Notes: generated by a model from the sequence alone, not told the origin. A stretch of DNA of 64,000 bases from an uncultured Mycoplasmatota bacterium (GCA_948329525.1 CAOJBM010000001.1:407-64406); one strand, 5' to 3'; numbered from the stretch's first letter, positions 26,025 to 62,128 are shown. Made by a program: numbers and translations.

Positions 26025-26267
26025 TAGTACATCACCATCCTTATATGGCGACATACCATAGCAAAATTGCTTACACATATATTATAACGTAAAAGCTTGT
26101 TTTTTTCAGCCATTATTAGCTTATTTTTGCTAGATATTTCAAAATAACTTTAACCAATTGTTTGTTTACACTTTCTTTTATTTCATTTTCACTTTTATTG
26201 TTTGGTTCTATTTCATAAACCACAAAATTTCCTTTCATTCAACATACCCCCTATTATTCTTTTTTAT

Positions 26268-26873
26268 TTAATAATTTACTTCATCAATTAGTTTTCCTTC
26301 TATAACTATTTGATAACCTTTTTTATTCTGATTACAAGTAATTAAAGTTATATATTTATCATCTTTTAAGTTTATAACTTTAGCTTTACCTATCTTTTCT
26401 ATATCATGTATATTAATAATATTATAATGATATTTAATACCATTAAAATAAACATATACATCATCATTAATTTCTAACTTATATAATTTATTAAAAAAAG
26501 CAATACTACTATTGCCTGAATGTGAATATAAAATGAAATTACCTTTTTCATTTGGATAATTACTACTATTATCTACACTAATAGCATAATTAATTGATTT
26601 AAAGTTTTTTGTACTATCTACTACTCCTCGTTTTAAATTAATTTTAGGAATTTCTAAAACAGCTGTATAAGCAATATTACTATTAGTATTTTGAATATTA
26701 GATAATTCTTGTTCTGAATTGGTTGGTTCATCTATTTCATCTATAACAGAAGTTTCTTCAATATAATTTTTTATATCATCATTATTTTTATATTCCAAAG
26801 ATTTATTATAAGCATAATAAAATGCTAAGACCATTACTCCCACTAAAATAAATAGTTTACCTAATTTTCTCAT
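26268..26873 (-). CDS. Sortase-family transpeptidase (ICE-encoded)
   Basis: Signal/TM anchor, His motif (ILYSHSG), catalytic TLITC motif, 201 aa. Confidence 0.55.
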   Translation of the reverse strand: MRKLGKLFILVGVMVLAFYYAYNKSLEYKNNDDIKNYIEETSVIDEIDEPTNSEQELSNIQNTNSNIAYTAVLEIPKINLKRGVVDSTKNFKSINYAISVDNSSNYPNEKGNFILYSHSGNSSIAFFNKLYKLEINDDVYVYFNGIKYHYNIINIHDIEKIGKAKVINLKDDKYITLITCNQNKKGYQIVIEGKLIDEVNY

Positions 26874-29176
26874 ATTTTTTTCTCCTTTGTATTATCCCAA
26901 ATAGTAATTTTTGTTGTTCCTTTATTTATATTGTTAGATACAGCAAATGTATAATTTGATTTTGTGTAATTTTCAATTGCTTGAATATCACGCTCATTTA
27001 TGACTTTATTGATAAATAAAATATAATTATCATTATTTTTGCTAATCGTTGTATCATAATTAGCAAATATACTATTTTTAAAATTATCTATTATTTCATT
27101 ATCAACTAGTTCATCATCTTCTACTACTTGAGATTGCATACTTTTAGTAGCTTTATTAATTTGTCTTTGAATATTCTGTTGAAATTGTTCTTGCATATTT
27201 TTAGCTACTTGATTCAATGCTTTTTCATTTTTATTTTGATAATTACTCTTTAGTTCTTCAACTGTATAATAATTACTAGTAATTCTTTTTAAAACTTTAG
27301 TTTCTCTATCTATTCCATTTAAATTTTTATAACTTGGAAACAAATCACTATACATATAAGTATCCCTAAAAATTGGATTACTAATTGTTGGAAAAATAAT
27401 TGTTTTATACTTTAAGGCAATTATTTCTGTTGCTGTTAATAATTCTTTTCCCATAAGTGAAATTGTTTTATTTGCTCCAACTTTCATTGGATCTGTACTT
27501 CTACTCATTGAATTTGTTTCAACAGTAGCACGACCTAATTTTTTTGAGATAATTTCTGCTGTCTCAACTGTATTTGTTTTTAGATAAACTAAAGCACAGT
27601 TATCTTGAATAATACTAGCAACATCTTTCCCATATACTTGTGAAAGTTGCCCATAACTTTGAATAAAAAATTGAAATCTCATTCGCCTGCTTCTAGCTAC
27701 TGAGACTAGTGTTTCTATCGAGTTTAAAGGAGGACAATTTGCGAATTCATCAAGAATCCACTCTACCATAACTGGTAGTTGTCCTTTGTTTTCTGGTAAG
27801 TTAGCAAATCTAGTTAAGTCTTTTGTTAACATTCCTATAATAATAGTAACTAATTGAAAGTATGCTTTGTCCTCATCTGGTACAATTATATATAAAACTG
27901 TTGGTTTACTTCCTAAATCAGTAAAATTAAATTCATTTGAACTTGTAACATTTTCTACATTTAAATCATCAAATATTGCCATTTTCTCTGCAAATACTGC
28001 TGTAATTGATTTATATGTATTTTCTGCAGCTGATAAAATTGAAGTTAAATGATCTTTAGATAAACTTCCATACTTACGACTATTAACATTTTTTTGCAAG
28101 AAAGTTTGATTTTCTTTAATTAATGAAGAGTTTTGAAACTTTTTAATACTGGAAATATTTATCTTATTTTCTGGAATTAGTCCTAATTGATAATCTTCTA
28201 AAAATACTCCTACAATACCTATAAATAATTGTTTCGCACTATTTATCCAAAATTTATCATTTGTATCTTTATCTACAAAAATTAAATCTGCAAGTGAGAT
28301 AACTAATCTATTTGTTTCTGCTTGATGTTTAGAACTCATGTTTTGATATTCTCTAATCATTAACATAAGTTCATCATTTGATTTAGTAAATAAATAATCT
28401 TTTAAAGATATATTATCTTCTAATTTTTCTTGTAGTATACCTTTTAGATACATCTTTTTATCACTAATTAAATCATTCAAATATTTTTGATTATTTATAA
28501 TAATATCAATTAGATATTCTTCTAGCACATACTTATCTTTAATCTTATTTAAATATTTCTCATCACTAATATTATCTAACTTAATTCTATTAAATTTAAT
28601 AAAATGAGCAAAAAGAAAAAGCATTGCATCATTATATTTACAATACTCTTTCCACTCATTTATAATTGGTTGCATTATATTTATTTTATTAGATTTATTT
28701 GGATTTCTAAAATCTATGGTTACAACATCATAGCCATTGTCTTTAAATACCTTACTAGTCGCATTAAAGATTTCTGCTTTTGGATCTGTAACCACTACAC
28801 TATGTTTTTCTTTAGCAGTTGCAAACATAAAACATTCTGGTATTACAACTGTTACTGACTTACCACTCCCAGTTGAACCAATGAGCAAATAATGTGGACT
28901 TTTATTATCAAAATACACACTTTCAAATTTATTATTTTTCTTTTCATACCAAACAGGAAAACCAACACTATTTATATTATTTATATCTTCTTTTACGAAG
29001 TTTCTTTCAATTTCTTTCATATCTGCAAATTTACTAGATCCATGTTCATTTTTATTTTCCAATTTTCTTTTATTTAATCTTGGCTCTAAAAATAAAATAA
29101 AAAATATAGCAAAAATCACTAATAATAATATAAATAATTCAATAGAAGTCATTGGAGCAAATTTTACACTATCCAT
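26870..29176 (-). CDS. FtsK/SpoIIIE-family conjugative coupling protein / DNA translocase (TcpA/Orf21-like)
   Basis: N-terminal TM helix, Walker A LLIGSTGSGKS, 768 aa. Confidence 0.75.
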   Translation of the reverse strand: MDSVKFAPMTSIELFILLLVIFAIFFILFLEPRLNKRKLENKNEHGSSKFADMKEIERNFVKEDINNINSVGFPVWYEKKNNKFESVYFDNKSPHYLLIGSTGSGKSVTVVIPECFMFATAKEKHSVVVTDPKAEIFNATSKVFKDNGYDVVTIDFRNPNKSNKINIMQPIINEWKEYCKYNDAMLFLFAHFIKFNRIKLDNISDEKYLNKIKDKYVLEEYLIDIIINNQKYLNDLISDKKMYLKGILQEKLEDNISLKDYLFTKSNDELMLMIREYQNMSSKHQAETNRLVISLADLIFVDKDTNDKFWINSAKQLFIGIVGVFLEDYQLGLIPENKINISSIKKFQNSSLIKENQTFLQKNVNSRKYGSLSKDHLTSILSAAENTYKSITAVFAEKMAIFDDLNVENVTSSNEFNFTDLGSKPTVLYIIVPDEDKAYFQLVTIIIGMLTKDLTRFANLPENKGQLPVMVEWILDEFANCPPLNSIETLVSVARSRRMRFQFFIQSYGQLSQVYGKDVASIIQDNCALVYLKTNTVETAEIISKKLGRATVETNSMSRSTDPMKVGANKTISLMGKELLTATEIIALKYKTIIFPTISNPIFRDTYMYSDLFPSYKNLNGIDRETKVLKRITSNYYTVEELKSNYQNKNEKALNQVAKNMQEQFQQNIQRQINKATKSMQSQVVEDDELVDNEIIDNFKNSIFANYDTTISKNNDNYILFINKVINERDIQAIENYTKSNYTFAVSNNINKGTTKITIWDNTKEKKI

Positions 29177-35175: not shown

Positions 35176-35637
35176 TTAACTATTTTCTTTCCTTTTTCTA
35201 TATTCTAATTCGTTCACTATTTCTTTATCATCATTTTTATATTTTTCATCAATTTCAGTTAGTTCTTTTCTATATTCTTCATTTAATCTTTTAACTTCTG
35301 CAACAACTAGTTTTAATTTTTTTTCACGATTTAATCCATCAATAATTTTCTTATCAGTTAAATTTTTCATAGAAGTTTCATTATCGTAATCATAAAAAAT
35401 ATAATTGAATTTTCCTATCTTATTATCATAAACCATTGTAATATTTTTGGCAGATGTTTTAAATTCTAAATTAGAAAATTTTATTTTATCTATACTCTCA
35501 TTTTTAAAATAATAGACATCAAATTCAACATCATAATGTTGTTTTATGAGTTCCAAACTTTGTTTATATTTTAACTTTGCTTTATCTTTTTCTACGATTT
35601 TTTTCATCAAATTATCTCTATATAGCTCATCATTCAT
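35176..35637 (-). CDS. Hypothetical coiled-coil protein
   Basis: 153 aa. Confidence 0.35.
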   Translation of the reverse strand: MNDELYRDNLMKKIVEKDKAKLKYKQSLELIKQHYDVEFDVYYFKNESIDKIKFSNLEFKTSAKNITMVYDNKIGKFNYIFYDYDNETSMKNLTDKKIIDGLNREKKLKLVVAEVKRLNEEYRKELTEIDEKYKNDDKEIVNELEYRKRKENS

Positions 35638-36602
35638 AGTTCAATTTCACTATTCCTTTCTTCCTCTCTTTTAGAAATTATAATCTTCAAATTATCATTT
35701 ACATACTTGTAATTTTTCATTAACGAATCCTTATTTTTTATAAGTGCCTCATTTAAATCTTTTACTCCAGTACCAGAAATTAATGTTAAAGAAAAAGAAC
35801 TAACCTTTAATTTTTCTAGTTCTTCTTTCACAATATCTTGATACATAGCTCCAGTTTTATCATTATCAAATGCTAAAACAAAAGTACCATTATATTTATT
35901 TTCTTCTACTATTTTTAATAATCTTTTATAGTTAGGTAAACCATTGAGTGCTACTGTTTTCACATCAGAATCAATCGTTTCTAAAGATAAAGAATCTATA
36001 ATACTTTCTGTAATATAGATTAATTTATTATCACTATTAATTAAATTTTCATTCCATAAATAGCTTGTCCCTTTTGATTTTATTTTTCCATCTCCAGTAA
36101 CACTTCTAGCAAAATAACAATTTTTATTAATTGGAAAAACCACCATTTCTCTTTTTTCATCATATCCAACATTATACTTTTTTAATAGTTCTGGATTGAT
36201 TTTTCTTTCATTTAAATAATCTGTTTTATTAATTTTGCTAATACACTTCTGAAAATAATTTGTAAAATCTATCACATTATTGTCAGCTTCTACAACATCA
36301 AATTTTTTAAAAACTATCTCTGATATATTTGGATATAACTTATCAGCTATCTCCAATTTTTCTTTAAATGATTCCACTCCATAATCAAGTCCAATTAAAT
36401 CAAAAATATCATAGTGAGTACCACAAGAAAAACAATTACATATATTTCCTTTTGCATAATAACTCATACTTGGATGTCGATCTTCATGATCTGGATTTAA
36501 ACAAGTAAATGGTTGATTGATATTTATATTATGTTTAATCATTAAATAATCTGCTAACATTGGTTTAAAATTATCAATACTTTTTCTATCTATGAAAGAC
36601 AC
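35634..36602 (-). CDS. DNA primase (CHC2 zinc finger + Toprim), conjugative-element type
   Basis: CHC2 finger FTCLNPDHEDRHPSMSYYAKGNICNCFSCGTHYDIFDL; Toprim-like acidic motifs (IYITESIIDSLSL, AFDNDKTG). Confidence 0.7.
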   Translation of the reverse strand: MSFIDRKSIDNFKPMLADYLMIKHNININQPFTCLNPDHEDRHPSMSYYAKGNICNCFSCGTHYDIFDLIGLDYGVESFKEKLEIADKLYPNISEIVFKKFDVVEADNNVIDFTNYFQKCISKINKTDYLNERKINPELLKKYNVGYDEKREMVVFPINKNCYFARSVTGDGKIKSKGTSYLWNENLINSDNKLIYITESIIDSLSLETIDSDVKTVALNGLPNYKRLLKIVEENKYNGTFVLAFDNDKTGAMYQDIVKEELEKLKVSSFSLTLISGTGVKDLNEALIKNKDSLMKNYKYVNDNLKIIISKREEERNSEIEL

Positions 36603-40035: not shown

Positions 40036-41043
40036 TCAGTTTCCCTCATACTGTGTAAAATCTATATAAGCAATTGCATCTAGCAAATTGCCATCTTTAT
40101 CTTTTAATCCTAAATGCAAATGAGGACCAGTAGAAGTTCCTGTAGTAGAAGTTCTACCTAATAAATCCCCTTTTTTAACCATAGAACCCCTTTTAATTCC
40201 AAAAGGTTGACTGTTAAATTGTAAATGCCAATACATAGCTGTTAAACCATTATTGCAAGTAACCATCATATAATTACCAGTTGAATTACCAGATTCTTTA
40301 AATGGTAAATCATTTGCTTGTGTATTAGTTACATTAGAAACTATTCCATCACACATACTATAAAAGTTTGTACCTGTTGGTACTGCTAAATCCCAACCAG
40401 AATGGAAATTTGTACTTGCTTGTGCTGCCTCTGATATATTTCCTAAATCAACATTTCTATGTTCAAATACAATAGATGTAACTGTAAAATTAGTTTTAAG
40501 TGGAAAAGCGTAAGGCAATGGATAATATACTTCATCATAATCATTACTTTCTGTTATATCTTTACCATCTACATTACATAAATCAATTACATCAATAGCA
40601 ACACCATTTGCATTTACTCCACTTTCAATATTAAAAGTTGGAATAGATGGATCACTCTTTAAATTTTTACAAACTGTTTTAATAGGTATCATTTGTTTTT
40701 CTTCTGCATTAACATTATCCAAATATGCCTTATCCCATAATTCATTGCTTAAATTAGATGTATCTAATACATTATTTGTTCTTTGAAGATAAAACACCAT
40801 TCTTTCCAATGGAACATAACCTTTAGTTAACAAATATTTATTTAATAATAATCTATATCTTTCAGCATATAATTGACTATTTATTACCTTAGAATTTGCT
40901 CTCATTTGATTTGCCTGTTCATTAATGTATGCTTCACCTACTTTATAGCCACATACTGCTATAACTACGATCATAATAAGTGCTACTAAAAATCCTACAA
41001 CTAAAGTAATCAGAAATGCTTTTATTTTTAATAATTTTCCCAT
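40036..41043 (-). CDS. M23-family peptidoglycan endopeptidase (conjugation cell-wall hydrolase)
   Basis: N-terminal TM anchor; HSGWDLAVPTGT (HxxxD) and GPHLHLG (HxH) metal-binding motifs. Confidence 0.8.
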   Translation of the reverse strand: MGKLLKIKAFLITLVVGFLVALIMIVVIAVCGYKVGEAYINEQANQMRANSKVINSQLYAERYRLLLNKYLLTKGYVPLERMVFYLQRTNNVLDTSNLSNELWDKAYLDNVNAEEKQMIPIKTVCKNLKSDPSIPTFNIESGVNANGVAIDVIDLCNVDGKDITESNDYDEVYYPLPYAFPLKTNFTVTSIVFEHRNVDLGNISEAAQASTNFHSGWDLAVPTGTNFYSMCDGIVSNVTNTQANDLPFKESGNSTGNYMMVTCNNGLTAMYWHLQFNSQPFGIKRGSMVKKGDLLGRTSTTGTSTGPHLHLGLKDKDGNLLDAIAYIDFTQYEGN

Positions 41044-43367
41044 TATTCTTCTCTACTTGCAGATGGAAAATCTTCTGATTCACCCATATAATAAAGTTGA
41101 AGTGGTGTTGCAAAAACATTGATTCTAAGTCTATTTTTATTAGTTATATTAACTAAAAATTGTCCTTGCCCACATCTACTTAAAAATGATTTTTGAGTTT
41201 CTGTTAAAGGTGTATTTGCATATATCTTCTCAATAGCTTGTATATCATTATCTTTTAACATACCAGTAATCTGATACTGACAATTTCCAAATAAACTTGA
41301 AGCATGTCTTAAAACACCTGCTGAACTTGTTAAGTCAGATGGTTGTTGTGTTGCCACTACTATACCTGCATTATATTTTCTCAATCTACGACTCATTTGC
41401 CCAAAATATTTTAATAATGTTGGATTATCTTCATCTATGAAATAATGAAATTCATCTACAACAATAAGCATATTTTGTTTTTTATTTTTCTTATCATTTT
41501 TCTTTTTATTATCTACAATCTCATTACTTAGATAAGTAAGTAAATTAATCATTTGAGTATTAATTAATCTTCTACTTGAATTAAATAGTAATTCTTGCAA
41601 ATTAAAAACGACTAGATTATTACTTAAATCTATAGTCGTTATACCATTATAAAGATTTCCATCTTGCCCTGTAACCATTCTTTTAAGAAGAACTTCTATA
41701 TTAACTAAAATTCTTTCTAATTCCTTTGTTTTAGTATTTCTTTGTTGTTCTAAAAGAAAGGCATATAAATCAGAAAAGATCGGATAATCTTTTGCGTTCA
41801 TATTTTCAAATTCTTCTAATGTAGTTTTTTTAGTGATTCCTCTACTATTATAAAATTTTTCTACTATATCAAGTAAAACTACTAATTCTTTTTCTGATAT
41901 ATCTTCAAAAGCTGTTATAAAGAAATTTTCTAGGAAACCTAAATGTTTTCCTAAAATAGATGTTTCTCCATCATCATCAGTTGAAACATATCTAATTTGA
42001 AGTGGATTAATTAAACTCTTACTAGAGAGATCTATGTATTCTCCACCACATCTATTAGTTAATTTTTCTAGTTCATTTTCAATATCGAATAAAAATAACT
42101 TAGTACCCCTAGCAAATTCATTAGTAATTAAAAGTTTAAGTAAAAAACTTTTACCTGAACCAGTTGTACCTATAACACTCATATTATGACCTGTTCTATT
42201 TTTGGTTAAAGCAAACTGATCGAAGAAAGTTGGTAAACCATAATTAGAATCTTCTCCAATAAGCCATCCAGCAGAATCATTATGATAATTTTCAGTAAAG
42301 AAAAATGCTGATGCTAAAGTAGATGTTGGTAAGTACATTGCATAATCTGGCAAACCTTTATCAGTTAATTCAAATCCTTGCCATGCAGCCATTTGTCTTA
42401 AATTAGGTATATCAACTTTTATCTGATACAATTCTGCATTTGTTTTTATCTCTTTTAATATCTCCTCCCTTTGCTTCTTTGTTCCAGAAATAGCAAGAAT
42501 AATAGATACTTCTTTTACCTTTTCATCATTTGCAGATATTTGTTCTATTAATAATTTATAGTTATTCATAAGTGATTGCATTTCTGTTACATCACTTAAA
42601 TTTTTAGATGAGTTAAAGTCTGCCAAAACAGCTTTAAAACTTGCATTCAAAACATTTAAAAGTTTTGATTGTTCTATTGTATCTTTTATTGTTACACTAG
42701 CTTTTACATTAGGTAAAATAATAATCCTATCTAAAAAGCCATGTTCAATAAATAATGGATAGTTTTTAATACTAACCATTTGAATTTCTTCATTATCTAC
42801 CTTTAGGTATGAAGGCATTTCTGATATTCTAAGTGGTGATAATAAATCTACAAAATCATAATACATTATTTGATCTAAATTTACATTTGCATAATATAAA
42901 TTTGCAAATACTTTTATTAACCATTTTTTATTATCTACTAACTCAATATCAAGTTTTGGAGTAATCGCATCACAAGTTCTTTCAAAATCTTCTTTTGCCT
43001 TATCAAGTGCTTCTTTATTTTTAACAATGATGGCAAAATAATAAGAACTAGCAGAAGTCATATTTTCTTCTTCAATCATACTAATAAAATTATGATTGTT
43101 AATTAGCAAGTTTTTTCTAACTTCATTATTAGAATTTTCTTCAATCAATTTTTCATAATTTTCTTTATTAATATTAAGATTTATCTTTTCATCAAATTTA
43201 TATGCTTTTATTACAAAAGGCAATCTATATAATTTTGATAATGTATGAAAAAATATCTTCTGTTCACTATCATTTGTGAGTGATAAATCAATTGGACTTA
43301 CCTTATAAAGTAAAGCTACTTGATCTGATTTTAATCTAATTACTCCATTATCACTAATTTCTTTCAC
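41043..43367 (-). CDS. VirB4-family type IV secretion ATPase
   Basis: Walker A GTTGSGKSF, Walker B IVVDEFHYF, 774 aa. Confidence 0.8.
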   Translation of the reverse strand: MKEISDNGVIRLKSDQVALLYKVSPIDLSLTNDSEQKIFFHTLSKLYRLPFVIKAYKFDEKINLNINKENYEKLIEENSNNEVRKNLLINNHNFISMIEEENMTSASSYYFAIIVKNKEALDKAKEDFERTCDAITPKLDIELVDNKKWLIKVFANLYYANVNLDQIMYYDFVDLLSPLRISEMPSYLKVDNEEIQMVSIKNYPLFIEHGFLDRIIILPNVKASVTIKDTIEQSKLLNVLNASFKAVLADFNSSKNLSDVTEMQSLMNNYKLLIEQISANDEKVKEVSIILAISGTKKQREEILKEIKTNAELYQIKVDIPNLRQMAAWQGFELTDKGLPDYAMYLPTSTLASAFFFTENYHNDSAGWLIGEDSNYGLPTFFDQFALTKNRTGHNMSVIGTTGSGKSFLLKLLITNEFARGTKLFLFDIENELEKLTNRCGGEYIDLSSKSLINPLQIRYVSTDDDGETSILGKHLGFLENFFITAFEDISEKELVVLLDIVEKFYNSRGITKKTTLEEFENMNAKDYPIFSDLYAFLLEQQRNTKTKELERILVNIEVLLKRMVTGQDGNLYNGITTIDLSNNLVVFNLQELLFNSSRRLINTQMINLLTYLSNEIVDNKKKNDKKNKKQNMLIVVDEFHYFIDEDNPTLLKYFGQMSRRLRKYNAGIVVATQQPSDLTSSAGVLRHASSLFGNCQYQITGMLKDNDIQAIEKIYANTPLTETQKSFLSRCGQGQFLVNITNKNRLRINVFATPLQLYYMGESEDFPSASREE

Positions 43368-46947: not shown

Positions 46948-49731
46948 TTATTTCTTATTTTTCTTTTTACTTGAAATAATTATTAATCCACTACCTAGAA
47001 GAACAATAACTCCAGCAATTACATTAACATAACTATTTGCTCCAGTATTTGGAACTTCAATTTCTTTTAATTTATTAACTAAAGTATGTTGAATTAATTC
47101 TCCATCTTCTGTTATATCAAAATAAACTTTTTCATCTGAAAGTTCATAATCTTCTAATGTAGAAATTTCTTGTAAATAGTAAGATCCATATTCAATTTCA
47201 ACCTCAATGTCTCCATTTTCATCAGTAACACCAGAATATACTAAATTTCCTTCTAAGTCATAGATTCCAATTGTAACTCCAGCTAATGGATTATTAGCTT
47301 CATCAACTTTATGAATTTTTACAGTAGATGTAATTTTTTCATTTGTCATGTTAGCTTTAATAATTTCTCCATTTTCTTTAATTTCAAAGAAAACCTCTTC
47401 ATCACTTAGTTTATAACCAGTTGCTGCTTCTGTTTCAATAATTACAAATTTTCCAACAAATAAATCAGGAATTTTAATTTTACCTTCGCTATTAGTTATC
47501 CCTGTAAAGATTAATTCTCTTTCATTAGTATCTTCATTTATATAAAAAATTTCAACTTTAGTATCAGGTATCTCTTTACCACTTGTAAGATCAGTTTTAC
47601 TAAAATTTAATTCTCCTTTTGGAAGATAATTATCAATTTTTTTATTTTCAATAATAACTTCTGTATATTGATTTTTATAAACTAATTCTATTTCATAGAT
47701 AGTTTCATCAACTAAATTCCCATTACTAGAAGAAATTTCTTGAATTGTATATTTTCCAAGTGGAAGCCCTTCAATACTAGCAAAACCATTTTCATCAGTT
47801 TTTATTGTTCCAACTAAATCACCTTTACTATAGTATTTATAACCATTAATGATAATATTTTCGTTTGCCCTAATTTCAAATGTAGCACCTTCTAAATCAA
47901 TTTTTATATATTTATAAGTGCCATCTTCTATTTTTATTTCTTCACCTTTTTTATTAATAATAATTTGCCCTTTAGCTTGATGATTTTTAAATTTAACTTC
48001 AAGAACTGGTCCTAATTTCTCATCATTAACAATAGGTGTATTATCTCCAATAGTAAATTTTAAACCTTCTTTATTCCATAAATAGCCATCAACAACTTGA
48101 TCTAGTTCTTCTAATACATAATTTCCTGACAATAATTCAAATGGTGTATATAAAATCCCATTTTCATCAGTTTCAAAAACACTAATAGTTTCTACTGTAG
48201 GATATGTAATTGTTTGTTCTACATATTCACCTGTATCTATATTTTTAATTTTAAATTTAATTCCTTTTACTGGAATAGTTAAACCTGTTTCTGCATCTAC
48301 TTTTACTACTTTTAATTTTGCAGTAATTTCATCATTTGCAATTAACTTATATAATGGTTGATCTGTATTTTCATTAATTGTAATTTCAAAATCTTCTACT
48401 TTTTCAAAATTTGTAGTAGAAGTCATCTGTTTTACAATGTATGTGCCATAAGGTAATTTTACACTCGCATAGCCTCTTGAGTCTGTAGTTATGCTTGTAT
48501 ATTTTTCATTTTTTGATTTTAAAATAATATCAAAAGTAACATTTGGTTCTCCAGTAATAAATCCTGTTTTATCTTGAGCATATACTTTAAAGAAAGTAAC
48601 ATCTCTTTCAATCACTTTTTCTTGTACTGGTATAAGTGGTTCTAAATTTTCTTTTGTAATATCAAAATAATATTTATTTGTATCCAGCTCATATCCTTTA
48701 CTTGGTGTTTTTTCTTGAAGAAAAAATCTACCTAAGCTTGGTAAATATCCACTTTTTGCATATCCATTTTCATCTGTTACGATTTCTGTTACATAAGAAC
48801 CATCTTCTCTATATACACCATAAACTGCACCTTTTAAGGTTGCATCTCCTTGTGGTTTAGATAATCCTGTATCACGATCCACTTTGTTAATAGCAATTTT
48901 CCCACCAACTATTTTAATATTAATATTCGTGTCTATTGGATCATAACTACCAGCTTGTACAACATCTTGTGTACCTGGTTTTACATAAACAATTGTTGGA
49001 TGTGAATATTTAACATCTCTTTTTGTTAAAGAGATTGTAGTATTACCTACTGCGTTTGCAGTTAAATATAAATCATTACCACTTTTGTTTGCACTAATGA
49101 ATGAATTACTAGACACCGCATATTTAGATAAAACTCCACTATTATCTGTAAGTTTTAAGGTATTGCCAATAACCATTTCATAATTTGTTGCTCCAAAGTT
49201 TGGAGTCGCATAATGTTTATTTAACAAATCTTCCATTTCAGCCATTTCACTTGTATATTTTGTAATTCTATTTCCATTCAAACTATCAGCAAAGTAAATA
49301 TCATACCCATGTGGTACAGTTTGCCAAATCATGAATTGAGTAACACTATACCATTTTAAATCATTATGATTTACTTCACTATCACTATAACCATATCCAT
49401 AATAAGCAAGAAGTTGAATTCTTCTCCATTGTGATTGTGTCATATTTGCAACATAAGATTGATCATAATCTTGCCCATCATAGGTTTGTGAACTATCTAA
49501 TGGTGTTCCCGGCTCTATACAATAAACAAATTGATTATCACTTTTTCTTGCAATAACAGCAAGTTGCTGATATTTAGTATTTCCTCCCTTTTCTTTATTG
49601 ACAAAAGTGTTAGGAATCCATTGATACTTATCATTAAATTGAGCAGTATATGTTTGAGCTTGTACATTAGTTTTAGGACATACTGCTAACATAATTAATA
49701 AAAATAATAAATATTTTAATTTCCCTTTCAT
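46948..49731 (-). CDS. Cell-wall-anchored surface adhesin with repeated CnaB-type (isopeptide/prealbumin-like) domains and a VPNTG sorting signal
   Basis: Signal peptide MKGKLKYLLFLLIMLAVCPKTNVQA. Several CnaB-like repeats (GAVYGVYREDGSY..TDENGYA, GIYDLEGNLVYSGVTDENGD). C-terminal VPNTG, then a hydrophobic helix and KKKNKK. Confidence 0.75.
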   Translation of the reverse strand: MKGKLKYLLFLLIMLAVCPKTNVQAQTYTAQFNDKYQWIPNTFVNKEKGGNTKYQQLAVIARKSDNQFVYCIEPGTPLDSSQTYDGQDYDQSYVANMTQSQWRRIQLLAYYGYGYSDSEVNHNDLKWYSVTQFMIWQTVPHGYDIYFADSLNGNRITKYTSEMAEMEDLLNKHYATPNFGATNYEMVIGNTLKLTDNSGVLSKYAVSSNSFISANKSGNDLYLTANAVGNTTISLTKRDVKYSHPTIVYVKPGTQDVVQAGSYDPIDTNINIKIVGGKIAINKVDRDTGLSKPQGDATLKGAVYGVYREDGSYVTEIVTDENGYAKSGYLPSLGRFFLQEKTPSKGYELDTNKYYFDITKENLEPLIPVQEKVIERDVTFFKVYAQDKTGFITGEPNVTFDIILKSKNEKYTSITTDSRGYASVKLPYGTYIVKQMTSTTNFEKVEDFEITINENTDQPLYKLIANDEITAKLKVVKVDAETGLTIPVKGIKFKIKNIDTGEYVEQTITYPTVETISVFETDENGILYTPFELLSGNYVLEELDQVVDGYLWNKEGLKFTIGDNTPIVNDEKLGPVLEVKFKNHQAKGQIIINKKGEEIKIEDGTYKYIKIDLEGATFEIRANENIIINGYKYYSKGDLVGTIKTDENGFASIEGLPLGKYTIQEISSSNGNLVDETIYEIELVYKNQYTEVIIENKKIDNYLPKGELNFSKTDLTSGKEIPDTKVEIFYINEDTNERELIFTGITNSEGKIKIPDLFVGKFVIIETEAATGYKLSDEEVFFEIKENGEIIKANMTNEKITSTVKIHKVDEANNPLAGVTIGIYDLEGNLVYSGVTDENGDIEVEIEYGSYYLQEISTLEDYELSDEKVYFDITEDGELIQHTLVNKLKEIEVPNTGANSYVNVIAGVIVLLGSGLIIISSKKKNKK

Positions 49732-55372: not shown

Positions 55373-57019
55373 TTATCTTGATCTACCTTTAGTCTCATTT
55401 ACAATTTCATAAGAATATAATCTATCCAGTTGTTCCTCAGTAATATTAATTACCTTTCCACCCTTAGGATTAATTTTTTCACCACCAAATACAATCCAAA
55501 TTGCATCAATTGACATATCAGGCATAGAAGCTTCTCCATCAGTAAAAATTATTTTATTTTCAACTCTTCTGGAAAAAGCATTGACCGCAACATCAAAGTC
55601 AGTTCCGCCACCACCTTCAAATGTCATGTTTTCAATATCTTCTTCAGTTCTTATCTCATGAAAGCCATAGAACTCTGTATCAAAACATCCTACTTTTAAT
55701 CTGGAATGTTGTAATATATTTTTACATTCTCTCAAAAAGTTCTTTAATAAAACTTCATTGATTGAACCACTTGTATCTAATACTATTTCTGTTTCTGGCA
55801 TAGGTTGTTCTTCCAAATTAGCTACAACAATCCCATCTTCTATAGAGGCATTTTTATATGACCAATCAACATCATATTTAATTGCTTCTCTTAAAACATA
55901 TCTCCAATCAATGAGTGGTTTTGCAGTTCCTATATCTTCAATTGTTCTAATATCTCTATTAGTTGATGTTCCTGCTGTAGATGCTTGTTTTGCTATTGCT
56001 TGCTTTAATTCTTCAAGTTGTTTTTTCTTATCTTCACGATTTTTCTTAAAAGCATCTTTCTCTCCCATCTCTTCTAATTCTTCTTGTTTCTTTTCAAGTT
56101 CACTTTTAGTTTTTTCTTGTTTATCTTTTTGTTTATTTAGTATTTTATCTAATAAACTTTCTTTTTTATCAGAGGATTTACTTTGCTCTTCTTTATGTTT
56201 TTTTACTGCCTCTTCCCATAAACTGTGAGTATCATGTCCAACATCTCTTTTTGAAGAATCTTGTTCTTCTTGTTGCTCAGAATCTGAACTTCCTCCACTG
56301 CTTTGTTGATTCTGTTGCGCATTTTGATCTTGATTTTGAGAACTATTACTTCCAGAACTACTTTGATTTTTAGAATCACTTTGCTGTTCATCGCTACCGC
56401 CTTGACTTTCGCTAGAACTTTGTTGTTCATTTTGACTATTTCCTTGCTCCTGACTTCCAGATTGACTTTGATGCTCAGAATCTCCTTTTTGAGTCTGTTC
56501 TTGACTAGATTCTCCGCTGCTAGAATCACTTTGACTTTGACTTTGACTTTGATTTTGATTTTGATTTTGGTCTTGATTTTGACTATTACCTTGTCCATTT
56601 TGTTTTTGCTGTTGCTGTTTTTGTTGTTTTTCTTGTAATAGTTTTTCATATAATTGTTCAGCATCATAATTAATAGCTTCTGCCATATCAACACCACCAG
56701 GAGCTAATTTCAAACCATCTTTTTTTAAAAATTGATTAATTACTCCATCAGTCGCGATATTCCATAATTCTGGATCTTTACCTTCGCTCCTTAATATATG
56801 ATTAAATGCAATATGACATACTTCATGAGCAAATATAAATGTTTGTTCATCACGACCTAATCCTTCCAAATATTTAGGATTATAATATATTGTTTTTCCA
56901 TCAGTACCTGCAGTTGGTATTCCCATATTTTCTTTATAATCAATACTTGCTACCACACTACCAAAAAAAGGATATTTAACAAGCATTTTTCTCTTTAAAG
57001 CTTCTATATCGTATTTCAT
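55373..57019 (-). CDS. vWA-domain protein with N-terminal HExxH metallopeptidase-like domain (DUF2201-type). The two domains are joined by a Gln/Asn/Ser-rich disordered linker. Partner of the AAA+ ATPase
   Basis: N-terminal AHEVCHIAFNH (HExxH); C-terminal MIDAS motif VLDTSGS and FEGGGGTDF; central QQKQQQQKQNGQGNSQNQDQNQNQNQSQSQSQS low-complexity linker. Confidence 0.75.
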   Translation of the reverse strand: MKYDIEALKRKMLVKYPFFGSVVASIDYKENMGIPTAGTDGKTIYYNPKYLEGLGRDEQTFIFAHEVCHIAFNHILRSEGKDPELWNIATDGVINQFLKKDGLKLAPGGVDMAEAINYDAEQLYEKLLQEKQQKQQQQKQNGQGNSQNQDQNQNQNQSQSQSQSDSSSGESSQEQTQKGDSEHQSQSGSQEQGNSQNEQQSSSESQGGSDEQQSDSKNQSSSGSNSSQNQDQNAQQNQQSSGGSSDSEQQEEQDSSKRDVGHDTHSLWEEAVKKHKEEQSKSSDKKESLLDKILNKQKDKQEKTKSELEKKQEELEEMGEKDAFKKNREDKKKQLEELKQAIAKQASTAGTSTNRDIRTIEDIGTAKPLIDWRYVLREAIKYDVDWSYKNASIEDGIVVANLEEQPMPETEIVLDTSGSINEVLLKNFLRECKNILQHSRLKVGCFDTEFYGFHEIRTEEDIENMTFEGGGGTDFDVAVNAFSRRVENKIIFTDGEASMPDMSIDAIWIVFGGEKINPKGGKVINITEEQLDRLYSYEIVNETKGRSR

Positions 57020-57029
57020 AATTTATACC

Positions 57030-57422
57030 TCATATTTGTGCAACTAATGAGTATATTTCTTCGTTTATTTTATCCTTATTAATTTCGTTAGCAGTTACAA
57101 TAATAACACAACTTTTTGGTAATTCAAAAGTAGATATTTTTCTATGTTCTAATAATTCGCAAAACTTTAGTTGTTCTTCTTTTGAAATAGTATCAATCTT
57201 ATCTATTATCAAAAATTTGCTTTCATTAGTTTGAGTTATTTCACTAAGCCATTTAGGTGGCATAAAATCTATTCCATCATAATGACCATTTAATTCTTTA
57301 TTATCAATATTAGCAGGTATTACAACTGCACCTTTGACATCTTTTCCAGAGATAAAATCAACTAATATGGGTGCAACATTCGCTCTTATATATGACATTA
57401 ATAATTCTTGTCTTTTTTCCAT
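57030..57422 (-). CDS. Small protein resembling a degenerate AAA+ segment (sensor-1/lid region); coupled to the AAA+ gene by a TAATG overlap
   Basis: LLEHRKISTFELPKSCVIIVTANEINKDKINEEIYSL resembles the AAA_5 sensor-1/arginine-finger region (IVAAGN...LFNRF in the upstream protein). Confidence 0.4.
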   Translation of the reverse strand: MEKRQELLMSYIRANVAPILVDFISGKDVKGAVVIPANIDNKELNGHYDGIDFMPPKWLSEITQTNESKFLIIDKIDTISKEEQLKFCELLEHRKISTFELPKSCVIIVTANEINKDKINEEIYSLVAQI

Positions 57423-59350
57423 TATCTTTTTATACCTCCTCTTGGCATATCAGCAAGCTTTGCTTCTGCAATTCTTTCTAATCTTTCCTCATCGCCATGT
57501 GTCCATAAAGCATCAAATATTGCTCCAAATTCTGCACCTAAACCTGTTACAAAACCTCTTACTTTTTCAAGATTATCTTCATCTACTTGTGATAATCCCA
57601 TAGTTGTAGCATATCTTTCTGCAGTATTTAATGCTTGTATGTCTTTATCAGTATAAGTTCCATTAATAACATCATCTAATGTTATAACTTGTTGATTACA
57701 GAATTGTACGAATTCTCTTGTTATATCTTCCCCAACTAATGCTCTTAACATTTCTGGACTACCTGTTGCATATAGCATTTTAGAAGCCATTTCCCACTTT
57801 CTTGGATCTGCATTAGGTTTTTCACCATCATACTTACTTCTTAATGTTTCGCCTTTCTTATAAGCAATATAAGAATAGATAGCAGGATGTATATTATTTT
57901 CACTTGCCCATTTTAACCAACTTTCAGTTGTTGTTTTTATATATACATGAGCAAATCTATTAAATAATGGCTCTGCTAATTGATTTGCAGCTAGTGAATC
58001 TTTCATATCATTTCCTGCTGCAACAATTCTAGCATTATCTGGTAATTTCCAAATACCATTAACTTCTCTATCTAAGACTATATTAAATGCAATACCTTGA
58101 ATACTAGGAAGAGCATTTGTTATTTCATCTAAAAATACAATATGGTATCTATCTGGTTCTTTTTCGCATTTTTCTTGTAATTTTTTTAGCCAAGTTGGAG
58201 GAACATCCATCATTTCTCCTGTTGCTTGATTGTAAACACTTTTACCATTCAAACTTTCTGGTGTTGCATTACGAAGATAAATTATTTCACAAGTTGGATC
58301 TATTTGTTTTACCCTTGCACTCTTACCTTCACTAGATTGACCATGCAAAAATACTGCTACACCGCTTTCTATTGCCCCTTTAATGATTTCTTCTTCACTT
58401 ACTTGTCCAAAATTTAGTCCATAAGGATTTCTTCTTTTCTCAGCTCTTTTTTGTTCTTCTTCATATTCTTTCTTTTCTTCTGGTGTCATATCTTCAACAC
58501 GAGTGAAAGTTGCAGTTTGAGTTAAATCCCTGAGCATATGTTTATCAAGATATTCTTTCATATCAGTTGTTGAAAAATCTCCATTATAACTTCTATCTTT
58601 TGTATGAAATCTTATTCCTGCTAATAGTCCTCTTTTTGATACTAGAGTTTGAGTTTTATCATCTATCAACCATTTGACAGGTGATACTTCTACCCAAACA
58701 TAATCTCCATTCCTATATGATTCTCCATTTGATAATTTAAAACTATTGCTTCCATAATCAGAATTAGCTCTAATGCGAATGTATCTTTTTCCATTATAAT
58801 CATATTCCTCATATGTTACTGGTTGAAAATATTGATCATAATCATCATACTCTGTTTTATCAAAAGTATAATTTCTACCTGTTTGTCGTAAATTTCCATT
58901 TTTGTATTCATTTTCCAATCTTCTTTGAACATCTGAATCAGGTGCATATTGAGGGTATTCACCATATTCAACTTCTTCTGTTCCATTGTATCCCCTCACT
59001 CTGTTCGGGGAGATTTGAGAGAAAATGAAAGATGATAGCAAAGCTGGGCGGACGGCGCCAGAGCGTCTATATCTATAAATGATAAACCTAGAACCATCGT
59101 TACTTACGCCGCGAACATCCCCATCGCCATCAGAAGATCTAGTATAAACCCATCCTGTTCTTCCCTTTAAACTATTATCATCTGGTGCCATGTAAGAACA
59201 ACTATCCTCACAATATCCACCTGTTAATATTACTAAATCAGTAATAGCAGACCTAGTCCCATATTTTTCTAAAACATCTAATTGTCTGCCACCATTAACT
59301 CCCCAAACTTCTTGTTCAGAAAGTAAAGTTAATTCCTTATCGAAATTCAT
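57422..59350 (-). CDS. DGR target protein. It has an N-terminal mini C-type-lectin/FGE-like variable domain (VR at aa ~73-105) fused to a MoxR/AAA_5-type AAA+ ATPase
   Basis: N-terminus KELTLLSEQEVWGVNGG...GRTGWVYT...DVRGVSNDGSRFIIYRYRRSGAVRPAL matches the FGE/CLec pattern (RLPTEAEWEYAARGG, NVWEWT, RVLRGGSW..GFRV). AAA motifs: Walker A HGQSSEGKS, Walker B HIVFLDEITNA, sensor-1 IVAAGN, Arg finger LFNRF. Confidence 0.8.
   Translation of the reverse strand: MNFDKELTLLSEQEVWGVNGGRQLDVLEKYGTRSAITDLVILTGGYCEDSCSYMAPDDNSLKGRTGWVYTRSSDGDGDVRGVSNDGSRFIIYRYRRSGAVRPALLSSFIFSQISPNRVRGYNGTEEVEYGEYPQYAPDSDVQRRLENEYKNGNLRQTGRNYTFDKTEYDDYDQYFQPVTYEEYDYNGKRYIRIRANSDYGSNSFKLSNGESYRNGDYVWVEVSPVKWLIDDKTQTLVSKRGLLAGIRFHTKDRSYNGDFSTTDMKEYLDKHMLRDLTQTATFTRVEDMTPEEKKEYEEEQKRAEKRRNPYGLNFGQVSEEEIIKGAIESGVAVFLHGQSSEGKSARVKQIDPTCEIIYLRNATPESLNGKSVYNQATGEMMDVPPTWLKKLQEKCEKEPDRYHIVFLDEITNALPSIQGIAFNIVLDREVNGIWKLPDNARIVAAGNDMKDSLAANQLAEPLFNRFAHVYIKTTTESWLKWASENNIHPAIYSYIAYKKGETLRSKYDGEKPNADPRKWEMASKMLYATGSPEMLRALVGEDITREFVQFCNQQVITLDDVINGTYTDKDIQALNTAERYATTMGLSQVDEDNLEKVRGFVTGLGAEFGAIFDALWTHGDEERLERIAEAKLADMPRGGIKR
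59036..59135 (-). repeat. DGR variable repeat (VR), 100 bp, inside the 5' part of the target gene
   Basis: Identical to the TR at 90 of 100 positions. All 10 mismatches are where the TR has A on the coding (minus) strand: TR AAT AAA to VR AGT AAC, TAT AAC AAA to TTT ATC ATT, AAA CGC AAT to AGA CGC TCT, GAT to GCT. The 3' end is a GC-rich IMH-like segment, ggcgccgtccgcccag. Confidence 0.9.
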
Positions 59351-59439
59351 TTAAACCACCATTATTATTTTATCATATTTTCCCTGCATTTCTTCACTTT
59401 TTTTGTTAATTTTACAAATTTATTTTTGTAAAATTAACA

Positions 59440-60459
59440 TTATTTATCAATTAAGCACATTTTTTGAAAAAATTTTTCATCAGAATATAAAATATGAGCA
59501 TAAAAAGCATTTTTTCTAATATCTACATATTCTTTATCAATAATCCCTTTTGATTGGAGTTTTGATAATGTTTTTAAATGCCTTCTTAACCTCTTTTTAG
59601 AAGATAATCTTAACTTTCTTATAACTTTACCACTATTTGATAAAGTATGCCTAAAACCTAAAAAATCTATTCCATTAGATGCTATTCCTATTTGTGTTTT
59701 TTGATTCAATTCAAGATCTAGTTCATTATTGCAAACTTCATTTATTCTTTTTAAACAATGTTGCAGATATTTTTTATCGCGATGTATCAATATAAAATCA
59801 TCCATATATCTAACATAGCATTTAATTCTTAATTCTTCTTTTACTAACCTATCAATTCTATCCAAAAAGAACAATGCAAACCATTGACTTGATTGATTAC
59901 CTAATGGTAATCCCCTATCAATATTATTAGGTTGCTCCTTTATTATTTTTTCTAAAAACCACATTTCATCTTCACTAAAACCTAATTTTCGTAATTTTTC
60001 TAATAAAATATTGTGATTTACACTTGGAAAATACTTTCTTATATCACATTTCAAATAATATACTCTATTGTTATTCTCTTTAAAAAATTCTTTTTTTAAA
60101 AATTCATCTAATCTATTCATACCAAATAATGTCCCCTTACCTTTTCTACATGCAACATTATCGTATATTAATCTTTTATCAATTCTTGGTATTAATGAAT
60201 GTTCACAAAAACACATAAGTAATACCCTATCCTTATATGGCAAAGCTTCTATTAATCTCTTCTTAGGTTCATAAATAATGAATTGCTTATATTTACCAAC
60301 TTTGTATTTTTTCGTTATTATCTCATTTATTAGCTTATATATATTTTCAGACAAATTAACTTCAAATCTTATTACCTCACCTTTATGTTGCTTTGATTTT
60401 CTACATTTTTTATGTGCCTCATAAATATTTTTAAATGTAAATATATCCTCTAATTTCAT
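59440..60459 (-). CDS. DGR reverse transcriptase
   Basis: YVRYMDDFILI (YxDD) active site and the DGR-specific motif GLPLGNQSSQ, where other RTs have QGxxxSP. 340 aa, no maturase/endonuclease domain. GGAGG RBS 7 nt upstream of the ATG at 60459; the ORF-track start at 60504 adds 15 aa. Confidence 0.9.
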   Translation of the reverse strand: MKLEDIFTFKNIYEAHKKCRKSKQHKGEVIRFEVNLSENIYKLINEIITKKYKVGKYKQFIIYEPKKRLIEALPYKDRVLLMCFCEHSLIPRIDKRLIYDNVACRKGKGTLFGMNRLDEFLKKEFFKENNNRVYYLKCDIRKYFPSVNHNILLEKLRKLGFSEDEMWFLEKIIKEQPNNIDRGLPLGNQSSQWFALFFLDRIDRLVKEELRIKCYVRYMDDFILIHRDKKYLQHCLKRINEVCNNELDLELNQKTQIGIASNGIDFLGFRHTLSNSGKVIRKLRLSSKKRLRRHLKTLSKLQSKGIIDKEYVDIRKNAFYAHILYSDEKFFQKMCLIDK

Positions 60460-60670
60460 AATTGCCTCCAAAAAATAATAAAAAGCACCCCATATAACTT
60501 GCAAAGATAAATAATTATCGTTGTTTGTGTGAGTGCTTATAATTTATCCACCGCACTTTTTATAGCGGTTAGAAAAGTGGAAGATTCCTTTGCTTTAAAG
60601 TTCTGATATATTTTACATAAAATATATTTCTCTGACCTGTTTTCTAGACTTAAAATTAAATCTCTTCAAA

Positions 60671-60770
60671 AGCAAATCTGGGCGGACGGCGCCATTGCGT
60701 TTATATCTATATTTGTTATACCTAGAACCATCTTTATTTACGCCGCGAACATCCCCATCGCCATCAGAAG
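60671..60770 (-). repeat. DGR template repeat (TR), 100 bp, about 210 nt upstream of the RT
   Basis: Non-coding copy of the VR, rich in AAY codons in the VR frame (AAT AAA ... TAT AAC AAA ... AAA CGC AAT); canonical TR-RT arrangement. Confidence 0.9.
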
Positions 60771-60843
60771 CCGACAGCTACGAGTAAAATGGTTAAATAA
60801 ACCCTCCACTTAATTAAAAACCTTTCAGTTTAAAATCCATAAT

Positions 60844-61425
60844 TTAATTTCTTTTTCTCCATCTTTCATCATCACTTTTTTTCCAAGCTGCAATAAGATT
60901 TATTGCTTCTCCTATTTGCAATGATATTTGTTTATATTGTCGCATTAATATGCAGTTAGAATTTTCAGCTATCATAGAAATATAGCCCAACATTTTAAGT
61001 TTTATTATTGCATCTTTCTGATATTCTTCTCTTTCTTTTTTATGTTCTTCACTATCAATTCTAATAAAATTAGCATTCAATAGTATTTCTAATGTTTCTA
61101 AACTTAAATTTTGCATACGATTAACAAATACACCTCTAAATTTAGAAGGAGATTTTTCAGTAATTGCAATAATATAAGCACCTAGTTTTTTTACAACTGT
61201 TATAACCATCAAATCATTTGCATTTGTTGGTATTTTATTAATTTGTTCTAATTCTTTATCTTTTTCAATTGACTCTATAACTTTCTTTTTATTAAATCTT
61301 TTATCATTTGCAGTTGCAAGAGCTTGTTTTACTGCAACTTTATCTTCTAGACTATTTAAATTACCGCTTACATTTTCTAATGTTTTAGGAATTTTCAAAT
61401 TATTTGCTCTACTAACTTGTAACAT
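60844..61425 (-). CDS. Basic helical protein immediately upstream of the TR; candidate DGR accessory (Avd-like) protein, unverified
   Basis: 193 aa, net positive charge, predicted helical C-terminal half; sits where avd is found in canonical avd-TR-RT cassettes; no diagnostic motif recognised. Confidence 0.3.
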   Translation of the reverse strand: MLQVSRANNLKIPKTLENVSGNLNSLEDKVAVKQALATANDKRFNKKKVIESIEKDKELEQINKIPTNANDLMVITVVKKLGAYIIAITEKSPSKFRGVFVNRMQNLSLETLEILLNANFIRIDSEEHKKEREEYQKDAIIKLKMLGYISMIAENSNCILMRQYKQISLQIGEAINLIAAWKKSDDERWRKRN

Positions 61426-61547
61426 AATATCACGACCTTATTTATATATTTAACTTAATTACAATACAAAACACTCCCATAGAATTAGAAGTGTCTTAAA
61501 AAGGTAGATTTAGGTACTGCTAATTACTACTACTTATAGAAGTTATT

Positions 61548-62036
61548 TTAATTATTTAAAAAATAACTTACAACTGATAGTTCTAAAACTATCCACAATA
61601 ATGTTTTTCTTATATTTTTTTCCTCAATAATATTACTTATACAATATTCCTTTATATATGAAATATTTACTGGAATTTCAATTTTTCTGCCATTTATTCC
61701 TATTGTTTTTAAAATTAGATCTGATGCTACGCAACTTCCTTCTTCAACAATAGCACCATCTTCTTCATTATTGTCATAGAAAAATTCAGTTACATCATCT
61801 ACTAATCTATTATTTTCTCTAAATTTTTCTGCTTTACCACTTTTCTTAATTTCTTCTAATTTATCATTAATTATTTGTTCTAAAACATTTTCTGCATCCG
61901 CATCTGATAAATCATTTAAAGATGATGTAAGTTTTTCTAAATCATAATAATATTGAATTGAGGTAATAGTTTTAATTTTGTCATCTAAAACTTCAGATAT
62001 TTTTTTTACATATTCATTTGTATTTTTTTTGTTCAT
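61548..62036 (-). CDS. Hypothetical protein with a C-terminal hydrophobic helix
   Basis: 162 aa. Confidence 0.35.
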   Translation of the reverse strand: MNKKNTNEYVKKISEVLDDKIKTITSIQYYYDLEKLTSSLNDLSDADAENVLEQIINDKLEEIKKSGKAEKFRENNRLVDDVTEFFYDNNEEDGAIVEEGSCVASDLILKTIGINGRKIEIPVNISYIKEYCISNIIEEKNIRKTLLWIVLELSVVSYFLNN

Positions 62037-62128
62037 ATCTAGCTCCTTATCTTTTAAAATATCTACCTTTTTGTTTTAGCACAAAACTCAACATTTTTCC
62101 CTTTTTTATTCCATTATAATTTATATAA

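Follow-up and report, generated by a model that had tools for sequence, protein, structure and literature searches.

We analyzed a stretch of 64,000 nucleotides from an uncultured Mycoplasmatota bacterium (GCA_948329525.1 CAOJBM010000001.1:407-64406), hereafter the window, in which the initial annotation had described a complete diversity-generating retroelement (DGR) between positions 59036 and 60770. The explanation that best fits the locus overall, and one in which we have high confidence, is that a complete cassette of avd, template repeat (TR) and reverse transcriptase (RT) diversifies the N-terminal lectin-like domain of a cytoplasmic MoxR ATPase. As a retroelement it is known biology and a regular member of the DGR family; what is new is the architecture of its target. 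Along the minus strand, which carries all the genes of the locus, the order is avd, a hairpin, TR, spacer, RT, a short gap and the target gene. The target contains the variable repeat (VR), which ends in a sequence like those for initiation of mutagenic homing (IMH), and is followed by two further genes, the last one encoding a protein that has a von Willebrand factor A (vWA) domain and its metal ion-dependent adhesion site (MIDAS). The features are:

60844..61425, minus strand: avd-like gene, 193 aa; the Avd-homologous part covers residues ~60-191, after a conserved N-terminal extension of ~60 aa
60809..60838, minus strand: conserved hairpin GGATTTTAAACTGAAAGGTTTTTAATTAAG, between avd and TR
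60671..60770, minus strand: TR, 100 nt, non-coding, with 28 adenines, between avd and RT
60460..60670, minus strand: structured spacer RNA, 211 nt, from TR to RT start
59440..60459, minus strand: RT, 339 aa from the ATG at 60459, with a GGAGG ribosome-binding site upstream
Minus strand, 89 nt: gap from RT to target gene
57422..59350, minus strand: target gene, 642 aa, cytoplasmic, with the VR near its 5' end
59037..59136, minus strand: VR, codons 73-104 of the 642-aa target open reading frame (ORF)
59037..59059, minus strand: IMH-like 3' end of the VR, GGCGCCGTCCGCCCAGCTTTGCT; its TR counterpart, 60671-60693, has A instead of C at one position
Target residues 1-~115: C-type-lectin/DUF6273-like domain that carries the VR
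Target residues ~120-280: beta-rich domain, followed by a linker helix
Target residues ~319-634: MoxR-class AAA+ ATPase, Walker A GQSSEGKS at 337-344 and Walker B VFLDE, both intact
57030..57422, minus strand: gene for a 130-aa protein, its start overlapping the target stop (ATGA)
55373..57019, minus strand: partner protein, 548 aa, with a zincin metallopeptidase at the N-terminus (HEVCH, 65-69) and, at the C-terminus, a vWA domain that has a MIDAS (DTSGS, 415-419)

The repeat pair and the retroelement genes

A single long direct repeat was found between 56 and 64 kb. Its copies, 59037-59136 and 60671-60770, are 100 nt long, align without gaps at 90% identity, and their homology breaks off sharply at each end; length, identity and second interval agreed with the initial annotation, which had set the first interval one base off (59036-59135). 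The ten mismatches fall at plus-strand alignment positions 7, 25, 26, 31, 42, 43, 46, 49, 63 and 67. At every one of them the 60.7-kb copy has T on the plus strand, as our own alignment confirmed, that is A on the minus, coding strand, and the 59.0-kb copy has G, C or T. With 28 adenines in 100 nt, the probability that 10 random positions all hit an A is 7.6e-7. The changed TR codons are AAT, AAA, TAT, AAC, AAA, AAA, AAT and GAT; the proposal that the adenines sit in AAY/AAA codons was thus too narrow, as TAT and GAT are also among them. The TR is intergenic and the VR coding, as had been stated, with the VR inside ORF 57422..59350. Neither a second VR nor a further copy of the repeat was found in the window.

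The shared 3' end of both copies is also distinctive. Over 24 nt, GGCGCCGTCCGCCCAG, it has a GC content of 71%, against 46% for the TR and 25.7% for the window, and the GC-rich IMH-like end described before was recovered in both copies. Its core, CGCCCAG(C/A)TT, is conserved; at the position in brackets, VRs have C and TRs have A in nearly all the species-level relatives shown (one of them, L034, has T). In the window this is the mismatch nearest to the 3' end (59043/60677), where the TR reads GAT and the VR GCT, and the corresponding target residue, 103, is an invariant Ala in 95 close homologues. Because the A/C split is near-universal in relatives and residue 103 does not vary, this mismatch is a fixed difference between donor and recipient and not a product of mutagenesis. 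The differences in the window are therefore nine mutagenic ones plus one fixed one in the IMH-like end, so that the original view of all mismatches as a signature of mutagenic retrohoming stands for nine of the ten. We infer that the fixed A/C difference tells donor from recipient and sets the direction of transfer.

The RT lies between the two copies and contains, as annotated, the motifs LGNQSSQ and YMDD, both in ORF 59440..60459. It matched RVT_1 in Pfam (E 8e-19) and the phage RT family phrog_1423 (E 8e-96), and an RT gene of 339 aa is likewise called in relatives. Its best match in the PDB was 8ub7_A, a reverse transcriptase of 328 aa (E 6.9e-34), followed by a next match at 8.9e-10, 24 orders of magnitude apart; the remaining matches listed include group II intron, retron-type and Cas-linked RTs. 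From its length and aligned motifs we take 8ub7 to be the DGR RT from Bordetella phage BPP-1. The closest solved match is thus 8ub7 and, among the matches listed, group II intron or retron-type RTs come only at E 8.9e-10 or worse; judged by its sequence relationships, the RT belongs to the DGR-type RTs, in line with the initial annotation.

An ordinary segmental duplication that diverged by chance beside an unrelated retron or group II intron RT would also leave two repeats and an RT, and NCBIfam does give weak sub-threshold matches of the RT to group II intron, Drt3a and retron models. These scores are far under the model cutoffs, and 8ub7 is closer by a wide margin. Besides, all ten mismatches fall on one base of one copy (P ~7.6e-7) and the same bias recurs in 16 independent TR/VR pairs of relatives. 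Together with the VRs of 95 homologues, which are reachable from the TR by adenine changes (both sets are described in the next section), the A-only mismatches and the PDB match of the RT refute this explanation, to which we give practically no weight.

The avd gene upstream of the TR is an addition to the parts listed before. The protein matched phrog_3206, 'Avd protein of DGR' (E 1.9e-12), with no match in the PDB by sequence, and in those DGR-bearing relatives with contigs long enough to show it, a homologue at 54-99% identity lies just upstream of TR-RT. With RT, non-coding TR, coding VR, A-only divergence and an Avd homologue all found, the claim of a complete DGR was upheld.

Two non-coding segments flank the TR. 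The hairpin at 60809..60838 is unique in the window and is kept in 10 loci, over which the stem changes look compensatory by eye (AAACC/GGTTT, AAGTC/GGCTT, AAGTT/AACTT, AATCT/GGATT); it is probably the 5' part of the DGR RNA. On the other side, the spacer RNA is highly conserved across species with proteins just 50-80% identical. RNAalifold gave 53 pairs, 20 of them with compensatory changes; 94% of cells were paired, against 37-52% with slid partners, and none of 500 shuffles matched the observed covariation. Folded alone, the TR-spacer segment had a z of -1.5, and it was the comparative data that made the structure convincing. In one of the helices the TR 3' end AGATTTGCTTT pairs with AAAGCAAAGG ~80 nt downstream, and the last spacer hairpin is followed by a U-run right before the RT ribosome-binding site. 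The spacer RNA of BPP-1 is required for priming, and by analogy the helix between TR 3' end and spacer would fit a priming role. A scan of 58800-62200 against Rfam gave nothing above threshold.

Upstream of avd there is a 162-aa ORF (61548-62036, minus strand) with no informative matches, kept at 82-97% just upstream of avd in five DGR-bearing relatives and not in more distant ones. Since a terminator-like hairpin (61498..61467) separates it from avd, it is probably outside the DGR transcript.

Variation of the target among relatives

We compared the target with its homologues in public assemblies at the protein level. Among 97 full-length homologues with 82-99% identity, variation is found almost only at residues 74-97, where all the sites with three or more common residues are located; the mean entropy was 0.89 bits per site at residues 72-105 and 0.07-0.12 elsewhere. 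In the 95 closest homologues, 2967 of the 3040 VR residues can be reached from the TR of the window via adenine changes alone, and 88 distinct VR peptides are found on 39 backbones. At most of the variable positions the commonest residue is the one encoded by the TR. The heterogeneity expected at adenine-templated positions is therefore what the relatives display, with an entropy about ten times lower outside the VR. There are also 28 distinct proteins identical except at residues 73-104; that all 28 VRs on this backbone are distinct follows in part by construction from the use of a non-redundant database, and we use the figure just to say that these proteins differ nowhere else. Finally, the TR is identical in the window and in two relatives (L002 and L003), and the VRs of these three differ.

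The same bias was apparent at the nucleotide level. We took those relatives whose RT was near-full and whose flanks sufficed, applied no filter for A bias in the scoring, and obtained 16 non-redundant TR/VR pairs, in which 181 of 197 mismatches were on TR adenines and 16 were not. As near-identical backbones bear dozens of different VRs, the lineage has diversified very recently. The DGR is real and probably active.

Several observations weigh against this reading. The evidence for activity is at the level of the lineage, across assemblies. The adenine specificity, which had been called strict, is so within the window (10/10) and is not absolute in the population, where beyond the 16 of 197 mismatches just mentioned ~2.4% of the VR residues need a non-A change. 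These are mostly a recurrent G-to-T giving D76Y and D78Y (GAT to TAT at codons 76 and 78, window ~59117-59125), found in 21/95 and 15/95 close homologues respectively, and L003 shows the D-to-Y change while its own TR reads GAT. They may stem from a step of low fidelity beside a template adenine, or from an old polymorphism that lies within the 5' part of the VR; the A bias is not outweighed by them. Folding of 111 nt around and after the IMH-like end (z 0.17) gave no convincing hairpin or cruciform downstream of the VR; by eye, the sequence after the VR offers a CCCC/GGGG stem of 4-5 bp with an 11-nt loop and no more. Such a structure is known in BPP-1 and is not universal among DGRs. The match of avd to the NCBIfam model DivGenRetAVD (E 4.2e-5) is under the model cutoff. 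Lastly, most members of the target family have no adjacent DGR, and many have RT remnants of 32-240 aa, which indicate repeated decay of the DGR.

These remnants, which stand beside an intact target in many relatives, raise the alternative that the DGR is no longer active in this genome either, its VR being a frozen record of past retrohoming. A contig with an identical target protein (L001) has an insertion sequence (IS) abutting RT codon ~13, and the same VR is kept on several contigs from different samples, an example being P0029, found on 8 contigs. Against this, the window has an intact set of RT (339 aa, YMDD), avd, TR, spacer RNA and IMH-like end, and dozens of different VRs are found on near-identical backbones, so that we regard inactivity as rather improbable.

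The contig L001 itself (ENA ERZ13410473 NODE_4023) is 10.8 kb long and circular-looking, with a target 100% identical to that of the window including the VR. Its IS, which codes for a 606-aa DDE transposase and which the window does not have, borders RT codon ~13 (window 60420) at one end and window position 51704 at the other. The contig represents a variant whose RT is disrupted and whose VR is frozen, or else an error of assembly at a repeated IS.

Target, partner genes and genomic setting

Searches of the target against Pfam, NCBIfam, PADLOC and, by sequence, the PDB gave nothing useful, with no Pfam AAA_5 at E 0.01, and because sequence searches were silent the domains were assigned via structure prediction. 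An AlphaFold model built on 51 diverse homologues had a mean pLDDT (predicted local distance difference test) of 87. In this model the VR maps to a beta-hairpin (strands 79-82 and 88-91) and the following loop of the lectin-like domain. This domain gave matches to C-type-lectin folds, the DGR protein TvpA among them, and to DUF6273, so that the VR is predicted to be displayed on a C-type-lectin fold. The best Foldseek matches of the ATPase part were NorQ, CbbQ2 and CHU_0153, all of the MoxR class; plasmid homologues of the ATPase with ~27-31% identity are annotated as MoxR family, and residues 321-609 match the phage ATPase family phrog_1297. A beta-propeller or hemopexin identity for the N-terminal and middle domains came up in PDB profile matches via a short repeated motif and was rejected as spurious. 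In the middle domain (120-280), 2 of 25 members match DUF6273 faintly (E 0.069), a mere lead from sequence to two DUF6273 halves that might lie in swapped, permuted order with respect to the tentaclin type of gut phages described below.

The 130-aa protein gave weak matches to phrog_1297 and clamp-loader families and none to Pfam; with its Walker-B-like FLIIDKID and VTAN motifs it looks like a degenerate AAA+ fragment. The zincin-vWA partner matched DUF2201_N (E 1.9e-35), DUF2201 (E 2.2e-14) and phrog_1314 (E 2.8e-66). An ATPase of the MoxR class next to a vWA protein with a MIDAS has the features of a MoxR/vWA pair, and an interaction between ring and vWA domain is predicted. The linker of the partner, of ~220 residues, is of low complexity, rich in Q, S, N, E and K, and derives from imperfect short DNA repeats, especially at 56300-56600; relatives have 542 aa against 548. 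No hydrophobic segment, signal peptide or membrane segment was found in the target, the 130-aa protein or the zincin-vWA protein, and for lack of any hydrophobic segment we place the three-protein system in the cytoplasm.

The target family was recovered from 75 species-level genome loci and 41 further metagenome contigs. The latter came from JGI metagenomes, where an exact pattern from the 3' end of the window VR found nothing and a degenerate one found 97 stretches, 41 with family members and the rest chance matches. The genome loci come almost all from uncultured gut Bacilli and other Firmicutes. The three-gene operon is syntenic in the family, with the 130-aa gene in most loci and the zincin-vWA gene in nearly all of them. 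A near-full-length RT lies upstream in ~20 loci, 16 of which gave the non-redundant TR/VR pairs. Tandem target paralogues occur in at least 13 loci, with up to five copies. In several paralogue arrays that have no DGR the VR-equivalent zone is the most divergent one, with 38-58% identity against 92-100% in the ATPase, which suggests that they are diversified in trans or that conventional diversifying selection acts on this same surface. Arrays of 2-5 paralogues are found at L028, L079, L034, L036, L038 and L039; at L034 one TR matches three or four copies that have identical VRs and many non-A differences.

The first 1-23 kb of the window contain housekeeping genes, of which tilS and ftsH adjoin a set of conjugation genes at 23883-49731 that also includes a fragment of an N6 methylase:

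23883..26078: large serine recombinase
26870..29176: type IV secretion system (T4SS) coupling protein
35634..36602: Toprim primase
40036..41043: M23 peptidase
41043..43367: VirB4-like ATPase
46948..49731: thioester/SpaA LPXTG adhesin

This is apparently the gene set of an integrative conjugative element with the DGR operon in its accessory part. We did not find its far boundary in the window. Two small Xre-type helix-turn-helix (HTH) genes (62197-62866, plus strand) and then an IS transposase, DDE_Tnp_1_6 (62873-63976, minus strand), lie upstream of the DGR cassette; in close relatives the same HTH pair is present, and genes for a C5 methylase, Fic and a metallophosphatase come after it.

A setting of this kind bears on whether we are dealing with a classical phage-borne DGR that diversifies a receptor-binding protein. 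RT and Avd do match phage families, the closest catalogued RT being that of the gut phage nd12, and a VR scaffold of DUF6273 type is used by phage tail proteins (PMC10743442, PMC11792537). However, the target has a MoxR ATPase and no signal peptide, and its residues 1-320 are in no phage record. Megablast of the 6-kb locus gave no match in phage (50,697 records) or plasmid collections. Among the ~37 window proteins scanned there was no phage structural domain, and the neighbours that did match were conjugation and housekeeping genes. We consider this origin of the locus very improbable.

Relation to known systems and possible function

The cassette is closest in plan to the DGR of BPP-1 (avd-TR-brt with target mtd; Architecture B1 in Wu et al. 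2018, PMC5758913). Both have the same avd-TR-RT core, a similar RT length with I/LGxxxSQ and YMDD motifs, adenine-specific transfer from TR to VR, a GC-rich IMH-like end with a TR/VR difference, a VR of C-type-lectin type and a structured spacer RNA after the TR. They differ in that here the target is downstream of the RT, whereas in BPP-1 it is upstream, in that there is no clear hairpin after the VR, and in that the target is a cytoplasmic ATPase instead of a tail fibre. By sequence, the closest phage RT (42.5% identity) is that of nd12, one of the tentaclin gut phages nd4/nd12 (PMC10743442), which share with our locus the order TR-RT-target and a VR placed as a beta-hairpin in an N-terminal DUF6273/lectin-like domain; across 92 residues, the N-terminal domain of our target and nd12 target 1 are 30% identical (E 0.013). 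DUF6273 targets of DGRs are also found in Faecalibacterium phages (PMC11792537). The tentaclins are virion proteins in which Ig-like domains come after the lectin domain, whereas here a beta domain and a MoxR ATPase follow, and their host is a phage while the element described here is cellular and apparently conjugative. Given the similarity of the nd12 RT, the shared order and the N-terminal DUF6273, the simplest history is that a MoxR/vWA operon captured a phage-type DGR together with its lectin module.

The nearest functional parallel is provided by the VMAP ternary systems (Kaur et al. 2020, PMC7159879; Dore et al. 2024, PMC10907252), which likewise combine a DGR-diversified lectin (FGS), a MoxR ATPase, a vWA protein and a peptidase, with cytoplasmic sensing predicted. 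[quoted passage not shown] They also include a VMAP protein; no VMAP domain was found in the six locus proteins scanned against Pfam. A variable domain and an AAA-type ATPase are found in one polypeptide in the Midasin-like UVR4 targets (PMC5758913) and also, as described by PMC10907252 citing Paul et al. 2017, in the lectin-AAA ATPase targets of Candidate Phyla Radiation (CPR) bacteria. By that description, on which our comparison relies, the CPR targets belong to a different RT clade and phylum, and their VR is reported as C-terminal. The MoxR and metallopeptidase-vWA (DUF2201) pairs of phages and bacteria (PMC7824862) have the same two-gene core, phrog_1297 plus phrog_1314; their ATPases are without the 320-residue N-terminal extension and are not linked to DGRs.

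With respect to the DGR norm, the system departs in three ways: the N-terminal VR, the cytoplasmic ATPase target and the zincin-vWA pairing. The VR is almost always C-terminal in surveys (PMC5758913, PMC8144416), with N-terminal VRs in 3 of the 372 DGRs of one of them (PMC5758913), and cellular DGR targets are mostly membrane-anchored or extracellular binding proteins (PMC8144416). We found no description of this target architecture in the DGR literature searched, although large catalogues may contain it unannotated.

From established DGR biology, the RT would copy the TR and the flanking structured RNA, misincorporating opposite template adenines. The cDNA would take the place of the VR, which lies 1.6 kb further downstream, under the guidance of the GC-rich 3' end common to both copies. 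The variable lectin domains, N-terminal in the ring subunits, would then bind a changing intracellular ligand; the ATPase ring would engage the MIDAS-bound vWA domain, as in known MoxR-vWA pairs (PMC9976466, PMC13036017), and binding of the ligand may gate remodelling or activation of the vWA-tethered zincin protease. In this scheme the variable lectin domain would be an intracellular sensor of a ligand, most plausibly a protein of a phage or another invader, coupled via the AAA+ ring and the vWA domain to the zincin. We infer this function with a confidence that approaches an even balance without passing it. Such a sensor system would amount to a compact counterpart of those MoxR-vWA conflict systems, diversified by DGRs, that have been predicted for multicellular bacteria. 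Precedents are the DGR-diversified lectin domains in MoxR-vWA systems (PMC7159879, PMC10907252) and, as far as they are cited in the latter paper, the lectin-AAA ATPase fusions of CPR bacteria, and the idea is supported by the DGR-less paralogue arrays, which diverge most in the VR-equivalent zone. Other findings speak against it. None of the target, 130-aa and vWA proteins had a match in PADLOC-DB 2.0, where the RT alone matched generic RT models; and for the same ATPase and peptidase-vWA pair in phages a role in virion assembly has been proposed (PMC7824862).

The latter is part of the main rival, in which the DGR is real and the ATPase and peptidase-vWA proteins are an assembly or maturation chaperone for structures of the conjugative element or of phages, with the variable domain choosing substrates. 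MoxR-vWA pairs are characteristically chaperones or metal-insertion machines, such as NorQD, the best structural match (PMC13036017), virion assembly is what was proposed for the phage pairs of MoxR and metallopeptidase-vWA proteins (PMC7824862), and the locus adjoins conjugation genes (T4SS coupling protein, VirB4-like ATPase, LPXTG adhesin). Hypervariation, however, is of no obvious use to a housekeeping chaperone, and the family is also found in ordinary chromosomal contexts and in tandem arrays whose paralogues differ for the most part in the VR-equivalent zone, as conflict genes typically do. We hold a chaperone role to be unlikely, if still the most serious competitor of the sensor.

Returning to the sensor, a self-contained hypervariable receptor on a conjugative element might serve as an anticipatory anti-phage sensor or as a weapon of the mobile element versus variable host defence proteins, with the DGR-less relatives reaching the same end via paralogue arrays; this we put forward tentatively, as a possibility with the balance somewhat against it. 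DGRs are abundant in gut microbiomes and one more is not news; the uncommon part is the target, an ATPase that is a candidate hypervariable intracellular sensor in gut bacteria. As a compact three-gene system, far simpler than the multi-domain cyanobacterial ones, it could be used to test DGR-diversified intracellular 'antigen sensors' directly. The TR-spacer RNA, conserved and covarying, offers a clean model of what this RT lineage requires of its RNA, and the family, whose members have a DGR, decayed RTs or paralogue arrays, is a natural comparative series for the gain and loss of targeted hypermutation.

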